A stretch of DNA of 61,911 nucleotides, filler included, from Nitrospirae bacterium MYbin3 (GTDB lineage: Bacteria; Nitrospirota; Thermodesulfovibrionia; Thermodesulfovibrionales; Dissulfurispiraceae), in NCBI GenBank assembly GCA_002753335.1. It is 5 parts of 5 records of this genome, joined end to end, with 100 filler letters (N's around TTAATTAATTAA, not from the genome) between each part and the next. Parts side by side here need not be neighbours in the genome. Positions count along the whole stretch, not along the records: positions 1 to 13,915 come from PEAD01000041.1; positions 14,016 to 27,426 come from PEAD01000042.1; 3 more parts are not named here. One strand, 5' to 3'. The position numbers are program-made. This document shows, in pieces, positions 6,001-15,000 of the stretch (its first letter is position 1; each line of letters opens with the position of its first letter).

Positions 6001-9000
6001 CTGTGCCGCTTTTTCCGAATATAACCACGCTTGTGTCGAAGGGCGCGATCTTTTCGATAAGCATGAATACTTTTTTCATGGCATCAGACTTGCCTACAAT
6101 GCCTTCGAAGTTGTCGGCATAAGGTTCAAGGAGGCGGATTTTTTGATGAAGTAATATTGTCTCATGAATGTTTTTTAGGACCACCCTGATTTCATCAATG
6201 TTAAAAGGTTTAATTACATAGTCATAGGCTCCGGCCTTCATAGCCTCGATCGCTGTTTCTGTTGAGGCAAAGGCGGTAATAACCAGCACTTTTGTTTCGG
6301 GATTGGATGCTTTTATCTCTTTCAGCGCTTCAAGTCCCGACCCGTCCGGCAGCCTCATGTCCATAAATGCAAGATCGAAGAAGTGGTTGCCTATAAGCTC
6401 TCGCGATTCCTGAAGATTGGCGGCTTCATGTGATTTAAAACCGGATTCATCCAGAAGCGTTTTTAGCACTTTTCTTATGTTTGGTTCGTCGTCAACTATC
6501 AGGGCTCTCATTATTTACTCCAGTTTTATGAGTTTCCCATACTCGGATTTTTTGGGAATATTACCGTAAATTTTAGTCCACCCATCAGGGATTTTTCGAC
6601 TATTATTCTACCTCCTAAACTATTTACTATTCGATAGGATATTGCAAGGCCAAGGCCTGTACCGTAGTTCTTTGTGGTAAAAAAGGGCTCGAATATTTTG
6701 TCTTTCATATCATCGTCAATACCCGGTCCATCGTCCTCAATTTCTGCGGTTATCCATATGTCTGCAGGATTGCTGAAACGGTCCGCATAGAGGTCTCTTA
6801 AGGCATCCAATAAGTCCGAATGCTCGGCTGTTTTAAGCGCAACCCTGATTTTTGACTCTGAGGCTTCGAAGGCATTTTTTATGATATTGTTGAGCGCTGC
6901 TTCTATGAATGTTCTGCTTGCTGTTATTTCTATACCGTCTTCTATCTCTAAAGCAACCTCCTTATTTGCATTAGGCCTGCTTTTCGCAAGCGATTTCAAT
7001 AGATCGGTAAGGTTTACTTTTTCTTTTGGCGCGTCGGAAGGCCTTGAAAAGAGAAGAAAGTCGGTTACGAGGTTTTTAATCCGTTTTGTTTCTGTATCGA
7101 GCATCTCTATATAGTCGGCTTGAGGTTTGCCCTCTTTTAAAAATTGAATGGCGGCAGAGACCGAAGCGAGAGGGTTTCTAAGTTCATGGGCCAAATCCGC
7201 GCTCACACGATAAAGCCTCTCATATCCCTGCATTCTTATTTTTTCTTCTTCAAGAAGCCTTATATAGCGCTCCTGTTTTTCCATTCTTTCTTTGAGGTTG
7301 TCTCCGGCAAAGGCTATAGACGAGAATGAAAGCAGGTGCAGAGACAGGTTAAGCAGGCTTTCTCTGTCAACCGCAGCAGAGCTGATAATATAGACGATAG
7401 TGTATAGGATAGCAGCAAAAAGCGGAAAAATATAAATGCGCTTTGTCTTAATGAGTATTGATGAAAAAAATATAGGGAAGAGATAAAGCATCGAAAGATA
7501 GGTGTATTGCCCGAAGCTTAGGTAAACAATAGAAGATATAAAAACGATGTCAAGAAGAAAGTCGAAGTAACTGGTTTTTTCGGCCGAAGTCATGAAACGC
7601 AAAAATGCTATAAGCGTGTAAAGTCCGAGTGCATACATGAACAAGGGCATGCCTGCCGCAAGTCCCGCTACCTGAAATGCTAGGAACAAGGCTAATGCGA
7701 AAAGGAATCGTCCGAGCCTGTAGTAGTTAAATAGATATGACAGATACATGTGTAAATTTCTCATACACTGACAAAAAATGTCAATATAATTGACATTTTT
7801 TGTCAGTGTATGGTGAGGCTATAGCGTGTATGAAAAAAACATGCTGTTTCTATGGATAAAATTCAGCTTAAATTTTTGGCATAGAAGATGCTATAATTAT
7901 TGTCGGTTAAGTATTCTGCCTTTGGCAGAAATAAATAATTTTTTGGAGGTCTAAAGAGATGTTAAAGGCAATCCACACAAAAAGGAATCAGAAGGGCTTC
8001 ACATTGGTCGAGTTGCTGATCGTTGTTGCGATTATCGCGATCCTCGCAGCAATAGCAATTCCGCAGTACGCAAACTACACAAAGAATGCAAAGAACTCAA
8101 AATGCACCAATGACTCATCAAGCGCATGCAGCGTGGCAGCAGCTCAGTATGCAAATGATGGCAACGCTCACACAGCGACAGCCGGTTCACAGTCTTGTGC
8201 GATTGATACAAATGGCGCAATGACCATTACAAACGGCACAGGATGCTCAGGTTGTTCAATAGCCACAACAGGTCTCGTATCAGGCTGCACAGGATCATAG
8301 TATAAGTTTTTATTTGGGAGGATGGGAATTCTCATCCTCCCAAAATTTTTTAAGAAGGCAGAAAGCAAGATTAGTTATATTCAAAAATAAGTTTGATATT
8401 AGCGATTGGTGAGGTGAAGCGATGTTGAAAGCAATTCATAGCAATAAGAAGGGTTTCACACTGGTCGAATTGCTGATAGTCGTTGCTATTATCTCGATCC
8501 TGGCATCAATAGCAATTCCGCAGTACGCAAACTACACAAAGAATGCAAAGAACGCAAAATGTTCCAATGATTCAGCAAGCGCATGCAGCGTGGCAGCAGC
8601 TCAATATGCAAATGATGGAGAAGCTCATGCTGGGACAGCCGGTTCACAGTCTTGTGCGATTGATACAAATGGCGCAATGACCATTACAAACGGCACAGGA
8701 TGCTCAGGTTGTTCAATAGCCACAACAGGTCTCGTATCAGGCTGCACAGGATCATAGTATAAGTTTTTGTTTGGGAGGATTGGGATTCTCATTCCTCTTA
8801 ACCTTAATGCGGCTTATCACATTTGACGGCAGGAGAAAAAAGTATGTTAATGGCAATAAATGATAATGAAAGAGGCTTTACTTTGGTCGAACTGCTTATT
8901 GTTGTTGCTATTATCGCTATTCTCGCGGCAATAGCAATTCCGCATTAAACGAATTATACAAGGAATGCAAAGCAGTCACGCTGCGCCAATGATGTTGCAA

Positions 9001-12000: not shown

Positions 12001-15000
12001 GTGTTTTTGCCAGCTCTGCAAAATGATTTTGTCACCTGGGATGACCAGGCTTTTGTTATCCAGAACTCTAACATATATACACTAGATGTAAAGCTTATTG
12101 AATGGGCATTTTTTAATTTTTTTGCTTCAAGCTGGCATCCAATAACATGGCTCTCCCATGCAGTGGATTATAGGATATGGGGGTTAAATCCTTTTGGACA
12201 CCACCTAACTAGCATACTTCTGCATGGCATTAATACATATTTGGTGTCGCTGCTTTGCATTAATTTGCTTAATTTTAGGAACTCAACCCTAACTGCTTCA
12301 TCAGAAATCCAAAAGGGATGGATTTTGTCAGACAGAGGGATAATAGTGGCAGGATGCATAACAGGTTTGTTGTTCGGAATACATCCTCTGCATGTAGAAT
12401 CGGTGGCGTGGGTGTCCGAAAGAAAGGACCTATTATGTGCATTTTTTTATCTGTTAAGCCTGATTTGTTACTCTGCGTATGCTCGCGAAGCATTGATTGA
12501 CAAGGATAGGAATTGGTTGACAGACAAAAGATACCTGTTGAGTTTGTTATTTTTTGTCTGTGCCCTGTTCAGCAAGCCAATGGCAGTGACATTGCCTGTG
12601 ATACTTTTATTGCTTGATTGGTATCCTTTTGAGCGATTTAATTATTCAAATCTCAAGAATCTTTTTTATGAGAAGCTTCTGTTTGCACTCTTTTCGCTGT
12701 ATGTTTCAGTTACTGTATTATTTGCACAAATGGCTGGTGAATCTTTAAGGTCTTTTGAATTATTTCCCTTTTCGTCAAGGATCCTTGTGGGGGGAGACGC
12801 TGTTATTATGTATATAAAAATGATGGTTTGGCCGGTTAACCTAATAAATTTTTATCCTTTTCCGAAAGAGGTATCGGGTGTTCCGACATATTTTATTTCA
12901 TTTATAGGTGTGGGTTTAATCACAAGCGGACTGCTTATGGTTTCAAAAAAATTCAAGGCTCTTTTTGTAGTTTGGTTTTTTTATCTGATAATTTTATTTC
13001 CTGTGCTGGGCATTATTAAAGGCGGATCATTTGCTATTGCAGACCGATATACGTATCTGCCAAGCATAAGTATATTTTTGTTAACAGGTTTTGGTATTGC
13101 TATAGTATATGATAAGGTTATAAAAGCAAGTAATATTTTAAAGGGACTTTTTCTGTGTTTTCTTATCGCAGTAAATTTGACCCTGTCTTTTTTGACTATA
13201 AAGCAGATTGGTGTATGGCATGATACGATTTCCTTATGGCGACATGCTATAAAAAATACTTCTTCTGAAAGGGATGATTATTACAGAAGGGTTGCAAGAA
13301 TGCATATGGGTTTAGGTATGGCATATTTCGCAAAGGGTATGCAGGATGAATGTATTATGGAATTTAAGACTGCATTGGACATTGAACCTCGTAACACGGA
13401 TGTCCGGATTTCTTTAGCTAATATTTATCTTGACATTAACAAACTGGATGAGGCGATTATAGAATTTAAGACTTCAATAGCTGATGATCCTAAAAATGCC
13501 GCCATCCCTTTAACATATATTAAATTAAGTGTGGCTTTACACCGGGTTGGCAGAATATTTGAAGCAAAAACTGCATTGATGAAAGCTGACGATTTAATAA
13601 AAAAGAATTATGAAAATATTGCTAAACAATAAAAGCAGTACTTTAGCCGTTTTCATTGTTTCTTTTACAACTATTATGGTATATCTGCCTGCCCTGCAAA
13701 ATGAATTTGTTAACTTTGACGACTATGACTATGTGACTCAAAATCAATACATACGCATTATAGATGCGAATTTTTTTAGTTGGGCAGTAACTAAATTTTA
13801 TTTCTCAAGCTGGCATCCAATAACATGGCTCTCCCATGCAGTGGATTATAGGATATGGGGGTTAAATCCTTTTGGACACCACCTAACTAGCATACTTCTG
13901 CATGGCATTAATACANNNNNNNNNNNNNNNNNNNNNNNNNNNNNNNNNNNNNNNNNNNNTTAATTAATTAANNNNNNNNNNNNNNNNNNNNNNNNNNNNN
14001 NNNNNNNNNNNNNNNTCGGTCTCGTTTGAGTGGGATTGGGTACCTTATAACCGGTACCGGTTAGGTGGGATTTACACCCTTAAAATCGGTATCGCTTTGC
14101 TGGGACGTAACAGATATATGTAGATGCTTTCTTTTTTCCATAGGCTTGAATCTCCTAAGTCCGATGCAAAAGATTCATCAATGAATTAACGGAAGAAAAA
14201 TTTTCATATAATTCGTGAGGTAATATGGTCAAATTTTCGCTCAACGAAATGATAGTCACCCCATTAACATAAAATTTGTTTAATAATCCCTCCATGTTGC
14301 CTAAATTCCTTCCAAGGCGATTCAAATCTGTCACAATCACCATTTTAATTTCGTCTTTTTCCATAGATGCAATTAGGCGCTTCAGAGATGGCCTATTGGT
14401 GTCGTTTCCGGAATATGCACAATCTTCAAATATCGCGACATCCTTAAAGCCCTTCGATTTGCAATAGTCTTGCATACGTGTTATTTGAGACTCAATGCCT
14501 AAGTCCATACCATTAACTGTTTTCTGGGAACAAGCTACACGAGCATATAGTGCACATTTCATCTTTTTACTCTCCTTTTTAAGTGTAGTTTAATTAGAGT
14601 TATCTAACTCATATTTCATTATTAGTAAAAACGACAAAAAGTAAAGTCCAACCTTATATATATTACTGACAGAATCGGCCAGAACGACATTGTCGTTAAT
14701 AATGTGGTATGGTCGGTTGTATATTTCGGTCATTTAGGACATCTATTTCGGAATTGGAGATTTCGGAGTATTTGGGCCAGTCTTTTCGGACTAAATTGGA
14801 CACTCGGTTCGGTTTAGTTTAGCCACCTAATCGGCCATAACGACATTGTCGTTAATAATGTGGCATGGTCGGTTGTCGCCGAGTGTATGAAGTTTCTCTA
14901 TATGCGATATAACACTCACCATAGACGTCCTTTTGAATATCATTTATATTATTCTATTATCTAAAGCCATCTTATAATTAAAGATTCTGCTCGTATACAG

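Follow-up and report, generated by a model that had tools for sequence, protein, structure and literature searches.

N-glycosylated type IV pilins have been described in archaea, and the TfpO and TfpW enzymes of Pseudomonas aeruginosa are O-linking. According to excerpts of PMC11178815 and PMC5131992, archaeal AglB places N-glycans on pilins and archaellins. TfpO and TfpW, called pilin glycosyltransferases in excerpts of bioRxiv 2020.04.19.049825 and PMC11841053, are encoded directly 3' of pilA and can replace one another between strains, TfpW being of the GT-C type. Some bacteria have a second PglB, such as PglB2 of Helicobacter pullorum, for which the excerpt of PMC6025236 gives neither a substrate nor a pilin linkage, and one Hydrogenivirga PglB was tested in Ollis 2015. 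A bacterial N-glycosylated type IV pilin, or a PglB dedicated to one substrate, was not found in the literature searched, which did not include the study of PglBs from vents by Mills et al. (2016), where pilin linkage may be mentioned.

Layout of the locus

The window, a stretch of 61,911 nucleotides from Nitrospirae bacterium MYbin3, holds the contig of this locus at positions 1-13915 only, the remainder being other contigs behind N spacers. The contig carries pilC, pilR, pilS, two intact pilin genes and a broken third, an STT3/PglB gene, a GT2 gene and GT-C genes of the PMT/TPR type (Table 1). The preliminary description had pilin genes directly before the STT3/PglB gene, followed by a glycosyltransferase, and the coordinates (7959-11909) agree with this; within the span it gave, 7959..13632, the GT-C-like TPR gene at 11914-13632 went unmentioned.

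Table 1. Features of the pilin and transferase locus, in window positions.
Feature	Position	Strand	Evidence
pilC, type IV pilus platform protein	3877..5142	+	PF00482 E 7.5e-68; NF052606 E 2e-154
pilR-type sigma-54 response regulator	5180..6511	-	Response_reg, Sigma54_activat, HTH_8; pilR name inferred from position
pilS-type sensor kinase	6526..7764	-	HisKA, HATPase_c, weak 6TM_PilS E 8.5e-4
Possible sigma-54 promoter of the pilin genes	7877..7891	+	2 mismatches to the consensus
Major pilin 1	7959..8300	+	PF07963; mature form of 100 aa with 6 Cys and 23 Ser+Thr; N26, N38, N79
Terminator-like hairpin after pilin 1	8313..8344	+	14-pair stem and T run; 1 found, 1.6 expected (shuffles)
Major pilin 2	8422..8757	+	92% identity with pilin 1; shares its three sequons
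Third pilin, in-frame stop in assembly sequence	8844..9179	+	N26 sequon only
STT3/PglB-family oligosaccharyltransferase, 659 aa	9187..11166	+	Starts 7 bp past the broken pilin; Pfam STT3, STT3-PglB_core
GT2, polyprenyl-phosphate-sugar synthase type	11163..11909	+	PF00535; best NCBIfam matches below cut-off
Membrane GT-C-like protein with C-terminal TPRs (TMTC/TfpW-like layout)	11914..13632	+	TPRs; similarity to PMT_2+TPR proteins
Second GT-C/TPR paralogue, 5' part, cut by contig end	13610..13915	+	

The window has 58 sigma-54-like matches at the stringency used, where 54 are expected; the candidate promoter is therefore favoured by its position only. The best NCBIfam matches of the GT2 are AglJ, PpgS and a dolichyl-phosphate hexose transferase. 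The membrane part of the GT-C-like TPR protein had no match in a Pfam search and resembles the PMT_2+TPR proteins of loci L055 and L068 (E about 1e-20 to 1e-22). Judged by collinearity with the genus-mate locus L002, the truncated paralogue likely continues on contig C34, which carries a third GT-C/TPR paralogue, a GT4, a GT2, a Wzx-type flippase and sugar-nucleotide genes; an end overlap of at least 15 bases was looked for between contigs C48 and C34 and none was found.

The transferase

The product of the STT3/PglB gene has a multi-pass GT-C membrane domain and a periplasmic core with the oligosaccharyltransferase fold, as in GT66. The PglB match and the WWDWG motif described earlier were both recovered (NF050801, E 4.3e-23; residues 420-424), the NF050801 score being 82 bits, far under the cut-off of 1300, while PF02516 and PF21436 are above theirs. 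Only STT3 families matched in the Pfam and NCBIfam searches, and none of TfpO (Wzy_C) or TfpW. C. lari PglB aligns at E 1.8e-16 by sequence and 2.4e-75 by profile, and Foldseek matched it to the structure model (pLDDT 88; top fold matches PglB, STT3 and AglB) at E 1.6e-23.

With residue roles taken from excerpts of PMC6215017 and PMC6025236, the WWD motif and the catalytic residues are kept: D44, D156, D158 and E278 (C. lari D56, D154, D156 and E319) for metal and Asn binding, and R149, Y203, R335 and Y429 (R147, Y196, R375 and Y468) for pyrophosphate and sugar contacts. Phe stands at the R331 position, which matches the rarity of D or E at -2 (7/117 sequons). The protein differs from a general PglB of the Campylobacter type in its NF050801 score, in this Phe, and in lying in a pil rather than a pgl locus. 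The DK/MI motif is degenerate in the clade of the enzyme, with Asp in 2/27 and Lys in 7/27 members as compared to 43/52 and 42/52 in other STT3s; the window enzyme keeps the Met and has Tyr513 at the I572/Lys position, a column that is variable in the clade and was placed by alignment only. The I572 contact contributes little according to the excerpt of PMC8479172, and the motif is important according to that of PMC5131992.

The apparent clade-wide loss of this motif, together with a W-W-D altered in 6/27 members (intact in 21) and a gene position otherwise taken by O-linking GT-C enzymes, could mean that the enzyme is pilin-directed with a changed acceptor rule, using non-canonical Asn sites or hydroxyl groups. 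We regard this as very unlikely, as the acidic Asn-activating residues are invariant across the clade, W-W-D is intact in the window enzyme, and the linked pilins are enriched in N-x-T (see below).

Distribution and pilin linkage

The enzyme had been reported from four other genomes of the family. Its distribution is wider: with E under 1e-200 it occurs in 9 of the other 67 genomes of the family, and it is present in many Aquificota, and the clade spans Thermodesulfovibrionales and Aquificota. A major pilin gene lies within 1.3 kb on the same strand in 22/27 clade members; of the other five, four lack sufficient upstream sequence or come after a tandem copy, and one is a true miss. The relatives counted here are non-independent kin, and most genomes are incomplete. 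At metagenome loci the pilin was adjacent in 10/12 members of the clade, with two lacking upstream DNA, and in 0/26 distant STT3 loci. Loci L108, L112-L114 and L133 were dropped as pilin-linked, their neighbour being a Cys-free GspG-like prepilin of 131 aa. A pattern scan of genome contigs from a single protein gave 101 matches, none of which was confirmed, and the broad alignment A4 made for scanning had no conserved stretch.

The gene lies directly 3' of pilA in a position where it is exchangeable with other transferases. Where a family locus has a full-length pilin but lacks an STT3, another GT-C-like membrane gene occupies this slot in 14/26 cases, and the post-pilin membrane genes tested in Aquificota were TMEM260-like in 16/16. 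The slot is empty at L245, which is closely related to the second linked clade.

The pilins and their sequons

The pilins have the traits of type IVa major pilins, namely a class III signal peptide, F1, E5 and P22, a long α1 helix and genes beside pilS, pilR and pilC; fold matches to FimA and Neisseria pilin are weak (E 0.37-0.58). The three sequons per pilin described earlier are present in both intact copies (N26-Y-T, N38-D-S and N79-G-T, mature numbering), but the broken copy, whose mature reading frame is interrupted by a TAA at codon 24, has one. In the structure model of pilin 1 a helix spans residues 3-54 and a strand 75-78, with N79 in the next loop. Asn26 and Asn38 are inside helix α1 in this model, and Asn79 is plausibly the only accessible sequon site in the window pilins.

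These triplets had been taken as evidence for N-glycosylation, a use that does not survive. At least three sequons occur in 39% and 22% of 20,000 shuffles of the two intact pilins (P 0.39 and 0.22), which are rich in Asn, Ser and Thr. Tail sequons are also frequent without the enzyme, in 45/60 Aquificota pilins and in 24/30 pilins at family loci. The latter figure, the position of two of the three sites in helix α1 and the lack of an excess in the window's lineage (see below) mean that three sequons per pilin cannot carry the reading. The sequon count was therefore dropped as evidence.

It is conceivable that the enzyme is inactive on the pilins of this lineage, which would be O-glycosylated by the GT2 and the PMT/TPR GT-C paralogues, and that the STT3 is a relic or has another acceptor. 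A Ser+Thr content of 22-23%, a broken STT3-adjacent pilin without a tail sequon, the lack of a sequon excess in the lineage, and four family loci with GT-C and GT2 alone after pilA would all fit. We find it unlikely, since the STT3 frame is unbroken, no catalytic residue is missing, identity to the closest relatives is 65-78%, N79-G-T lies in a loop in both intact pilins, and the STT3-adjacent pilins of loci L002 and L003 each have a tail sequon. Speaking against N-glycosylation of these pilins, two of three at L002 have the helical N26 site only, and one pilin of L003 has no sequon at all.

Sequon statistics across relatives

Pilin tails of the linked clade contain 51 N-x-T where 34.6 are expected (1.47-fold, 46 pilins), as compared to 71 where 73.4 are expected (0.97-fold) in 90 pilins without STT3; p is 0.0013 per locus and 0.0008-0.014 per sequence cluster. 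The excess is driven by Aquificota (1.75 linked vs 1.00 not; Nitrospirota 1.11 vs 0.91). The window's lineage has no excess, 4 observed and 5.4 expected, and the window's own pilins are a weak example of the enrichment. For N-x-S, pilins without STT3 are also above expectation (1.44). Genomes with unlinked STT3 only have the most sequon-rich pilins (N-x-T 2.32), which implies that pilin glycosylation does not require a linked enzyme.

Minor pilins gave 1.19 in linked-only genomes, 1.15 without STT3 and 1.65 with an unlinked STT3, and the difference between linked-only and unlinked has a per-genome p of 0.003. The reversed-motif control, 1.31 in linked-only minor pilins, shows the noise of this test. 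As an indirect measure of dedication to the cognate pilin, in linked-only genomes 67/187 Asn are in sequons in major pilins vs 82/457 in minor pilins. An N-x-T excess in major pilins with minor pilins at background fits a major-pilin specialist. Among 273 heuristically exported proteins of the window's genome the real and the reversed motif both gave 1.09, and thus no genome-wide signal.

A general N-oligosaccharyltransferase that merely lies in a pilus and surface-glycan island, with pilins as one substrate among many, would explain the still richer pilins in genomes with unlinked STT3s, the large glycan cluster downstream, and that the linked STT3 is the only one found in many genomes. We consider it rather unlikely. 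Linked-only genomes have minor pilins at background level, unlike those with an unlinked STT3, and adjacency persists where no glycan genes follow (e.g. L009 and L014). The linked enzyme also coexists with an unlinked paralogue in G081, G392, G490-G492 and the window's genome, where the second, distant PglB noted earlier lies on contig C1 (28% identity along 435 residues).

Proposed function

We predict that the product of 9187-11166 is a pilin-directed N-oligosaccharyltransferase, the accessory transferase of the locus, with a probability of roughly 60%. The dedication to pilins proposed earlier is retained on the strength of gene order in the clade, substitution in the slot and the N-x-T excess of major pilins, but the window's sequon triplets do not contribute, and its lineage shows no excess. 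The enzyme would move a lipid-linked glycan onto Asn of the major pilin in the periplasm. The glycan would be made on a polyprenyl carrier by the downstream GT4, GT2 and sugar genes and turned across the membrane by the Wzx-type flippase, and the pilin would be modified while membrane-anchored, before assembly. The most plausible site is Asn79, in the loop before Cys83, rather than Asn26 or Asn38 in the helix, and an acidic residue at -2 would not be required. The enzyme would owe its specificity to recognition of the pilin and to co-expression with it, its Ser/Thr pocket being relaxed. The neighbouring GT2 is more likely to supply the PMT/TPR GT-C genes, with which it may make up a second system that is probably O-linking. 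The general enzyme would be the unlinked paralogue on C1. By analogy with TfpO and TfpW, the role may be surface masking.

More tentatively, PglB may have become a swappable accessory gene of pilins on several occasions, in the main Aquificota/Thermodesulfovibrionales clade with its remodelled Ser/Thr pocket, in a second Aquificota clade and in a deltaproteobacterial one, building N-glycosylated type IV pili; the pilus of the window organism might then be both N-linked by the STT3 and O-linked by the PMT/TPR GT-C enzymes. We hold this broader picture to be possible, yet doubtful. If the pilin-directed role is true, bacterial pili can bear N-glycans, and PglB can turn into an accessory gene for one substrate, trading places with O-linking enzymes at a locus exposed to phage. 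It would also give a testable hypothesis for second PglB copies of hitherto unassigned role, and oligosaccharyltransferases without the -2 rule and with a relaxed +2 pocket, partly from thermophiles, would be useful for glycoengineering.

Comparison with known systems

The window enzyme shares with Campylobacter lari and jejuni PglB (GT66; PDB 3rce, 5ogl and 6gxc) a common fold (TM 0.73), the catalytic residues, WWD and a single subunit. It differs in an identity of about 16% by structural alignment, in lacking R331 and, as far as the alignment places it, the MI/DK residue at the I572/Lys position, and in having its gene follow pilA instead of lying in a pgl locus; it is apparently not a general enzyme. 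To archaeal AglB the likeness would be that type IV pilins receive N-glycans at N-x-S/T sequons. The earlier wording 'as in archaea' holds for the type of linkage only: AglB serves S-layer, archaellins and pilins alike as a general enzyme, and the window protein is closer to PglB (E 1.6e-23 vs 2.9e-12). PglB2 of H. pullorum and other second PglBs are alike in being divergent second copies that accompany a general PglB and retain the catalytic residues. In gene position and exchange the closest likeness is to TfpO and TfpW, and TfpW is also of the GT-C type, but the window protein belongs to the STT3 family and has the Asn-activating residues.

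Locus and enzyme

Window positions 1-13915 are a single contig, C48, and the remainder consists of unrelated contigs separated by spacers. As the preliminary description held, a PglB-type gene (STT3) directly follows tandem pilins, the third of them broken. Relatives with known names assign the genome to Thermodesulfovibrionales (Nitrospirota).

Features of the window
Feature	Position	Strand	Remark
HdrA-like gene and split methylenetetrahydrofolate reductase pair	205-3833		upstream of pilC
pilC	first of the pil genes	+	gene calls/profile matches
pilR, pilS	between pilC and pilins	-	gene calls/profile matches
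pilin 1	7959-8300	+	major pilin
pilin 2	8422-8757	+	major pilin
third pilin	8844-9179	+	in-frame stop
STT3	9187-11166	+	Pfam STT3 and STT3-PglB_core
GT2	11163-11909	+	resembles polyprenyl-phosphate-sugar synthases
GT-C-like/TPR gene	11914-13632	+	start of a paralogue follows
two serine recombinase genes	14155-16707		on another contig
frame of 2405 codons	20261-27478		runs into contig spacer

C48 probably runs on into contig C34: at 57% identity, the third GT-C paralogue on C34 matches its third-place counterpart at the genus-mate locus L002, although the two contig ends, when compared, had no overlap. On C34 this paralogue is followed by genes for a methyltransferase, a GT4, a GT2, a Wzx-type flippase, a dehydratase and a DegT aminotransferase, and by a NeuB-family gene. 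Initiating transferases are found elsewhere in the genome (4 PF02397, 2 PF00953). The GT-C/TPR gene has at least ten more paralogues in this genome (contigs C34, C37, C46, C66, C24 and C13), five of them clustered on C37, and its protein holds a motif of human TMTC3 quoted in PMC7801869. The window's GT2 likely serves PMT/TPR genes, since such GT2s follow PMT/TPR genes at loci where STT3 is absent. A methylenetetrahydrofolate reductase gene precedes pilC in L002 as well.

The STT3 product is a true STT3/PglB-family protein standing in a pilin accessory slot. It matches C. lari PglB in sequence comparison, and its structure model (pLDDT 88) has PglB as best match (E 1.6e-23, TM 0.73), followed by eukaryotic STT3 and AglB. 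In an alignment of 25 sequences, residues D44, R149, D156, D158, Y203, E278, R335 and W421 do not vary; their C. lari counterparts are D56, R147, D154, D156, Y196, E319, R375 and W464, and the functions of such residues are described in PMC6215017 and PMC6025236. A Phe occupies the position of R331, which PMC4894442 ties to the -2 acidic rule as one factor but not the only one. The Ser/Thr pocket differs in its second half, where Tyr513 aligns with I572. The DK motif (roles of DK/MI in PMC8479172 and PMC5131992) has its Asp in 2 and its Lys in 7 of the 27 sequences of the pilin clade, and in 43 and 42 of 52 other STT3s. The second, distant PglB reported earlier was found again on contig C1, 28% identical to the window's STT3 and with the DK motif kept; its neighbours are housekeeping genes, and no pilin occurs within 20 kb.

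Distribution and pilin linkage

A profile built from 19 relatives matched 32 of 390 class genomes, the best match outside the family having E 7e-52. Ten of them, all from the family and with the window's own genome among them, matched at E below 1e-200, and 68 of 178 Aquificota genomes are matched too; the distribution is thus wider than in the earlier statement. A tree of 83 STT3s puts the window's in a 27-member clade (support 1.00 in a re-rooted subset), and 22 of the 27 have a major pilin on the same strand at most 1.3 kb away. L018, L007 and L032 have just 2-263 bp of upstream DNA, the upstream frame in L032 not being a pilin; in a tandem STT3 pair L033 comes second, and L099 is a true miss. 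In one genome (L033, L131) the pilin-clade STT3 stands twice in tandem, and an N-terminal piece on another contig has a pilin before it.

Outside the clade (56 STT3s), a second Aquificota clade linked to pilins accounts for 4, and 5 stand directly before a GspG-like gene; a same-strand major pilin is absent at 47, of which 20 have flanks of no more than a few hundred bases. The subgroup before the GspG-like gene (L108, L112, L113, L114, L133) reads WWS where WWD is expected, has Arg at the position equivalent to D154 and lacks the DK motif. Metagenomes added 12 clade loci, of which 10 have an adjacent pilin and 2 lack upstream DNA; the 26 distant STT3 loci that they also added have no major pilin. 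The STT3 search matched 45 of 301 genomes of a deltaproteobacterial phylum, and at 2 of the 30 loci read (L259, L260; a separate clade) pilins lie directly downstream of STT3. These two come from small-genome members, and the pilins carry three sequons.

The Nitrospirota members of the clade nest among the Aquificota members, which suggests a possible transfer of STT3 between the two phyla. Near-identical pilins have STT3 between their copies in one setting and lack it in the other (L089 versus L205 and L206); the form with STT3 comes from metagenome loci and the form without adjoins a frameshifted pilin (G030), which suggests recent loss.

Sequons and the pilin-directed reading

Sequons (N-x-S/T) were counted from mature residue 46, with shuffles of the same tail as expectation; proteins that were truncated, masked, GspG-like, or unusually short or long were left out, and pilins "without STT3" had none beside them and, but for 2 proteins, none found in the genome. 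Linked pilins had 117 versus 78 expected (55 proteins), pilins of genomes with unlinked STT3 only 91 versus 49 (30), and pilins without STT3 139 versus 120 (90). Shifted or reversed motifs in the linked set gave 0.87-1.15, and D-x-S/T 1.33, as compared to 1.48 without STT3. The difference stays when each sequence cluster contributes a single value (p 0.0008, 0.0035 and 0.014 at 70, 55 and 45% identity), although these values overstate it because kin are not independent. N-x-T is the discriminating motif (main clade 1.47, second clade 2.16, unlinked 2.32, none 0.97), N-x-S reaching 1.44 even without STT3. The weaker Thr bias of the main clade would fit its lost DK motif. By phylum, N-x-T is 1.75 versus 1.00 without STT3 in Aquificota and 1.11 versus 0.91 in Nitrospirota; the sequon signal is that of Aquificota. 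In Aquificota with unlinked STT3 (L184-L200, L280-L290) all 30 pilins have a tail sequon, with N-x-T 2.3-fold and minor pilins 1.65-fold; among bacteria, they are the strongest candidates for pili that carry N-glycans.

Minor pilins, drawn from Aquificota, had 91 sequons versus 55 expected with unlinked STT3 (28 proteins, 11 loci), 82 versus 69 with linked STT3 only, "only" being judged from incomplete genomes (29, 13), and 156 versus 136 without STT3 (66, 23). Per genome, unlinked exceeded linked (p 0.003) and linked did not exceed none (p 0.29); the reversed-motif control in the linked-only set reached 1.31. The major pilins of linked-only genomes had 67 versus 43. The minor-pilin result agrees with an enzyme specialised on major pilins, and it also indicates that Aquificota pilins are probably modified by general STT3s.

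The three sequons in each of the window's two intact pilins, earlier taken as evidence, are at chance level in shuffles (P 0.39 and 0.22), and the lineage has 4 versus 5.4 expected. Genus-mate pilins have only N26 in common with the window's, one having N94 also; in L003 one pilin lacks sequons and the other has N54. N26-x-T is present in 9 of the 55 linked pilins, in two clades, and in 1 of the 90 pilins without STT3. The modelled helix spans residues 3-54, so that N26 and N38 would be helical, and N79 lies in a loop after a strand (75-78). Oligosaccharyltransferase acceptors bind in extended form, which makes N79 of the model the candidate site for glycan transfer. Our best reading is that the window's STT3 is a pilin-directed N-oligosaccharyltransferase (probability about 60%), because of the clade-level evidence and not the window's sequon count.

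Comparison with known systems

The literature search, with subscription papers and supplements outside its scope, returned N-glycosylation for pilins of archaea and, for those of bacteria, glycosylation through other enzymes; it returned no bacterial STT3 linked to pilins. A look-up of the term pilin gave nothing in PMC4894442, PMC11164674 or PMC12229607; PMC4471445 has glycosylation in its references only, and PMC6896113 has no glycosyl term.

With PilS as anchor, 48 of the family's 67 other genomes yielded the pilin locus (40 newly read, 4 already in the set, 4 left out). At the 26 family loci with a full-length major pilin and no STT3, the next gene is TMEM260-like (7), PMT_2 plus TPR (4), of an unnamed multi-pass membrane family (3), GT2 (1), something else (7) or beyond the DNA covered (4). 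The unnamed family (L064:3890-5719, L066:4461-6212, L074:1002-2783) has no Pfam match. In Aquificota without STT3, the post-pilin membrane genes were TMEM260-like in 16 of 16 tested. At L245 two pilins abut a minor-pilin operon, where STT3 stands in relatives L120, L125 and L127. The bacterial TMEM260-like (PF11028) GT-C gene directly follows pilA in many Aquificota and Thermodesulfovibrionales (L063, L065, L078, L079, L087, L090, L091; 16 loci among L140-L174) and is a candidate pilin O-glycosyltransferase, related to a human O-mannosyltransferase. The STT3 slot has the same layout as tfpO/tfpW of P. aeruginosa, a gene behind pilA (bioRxiv 2020.04.19.049825 and PMC11841053); the latter also mentions phage evasion.
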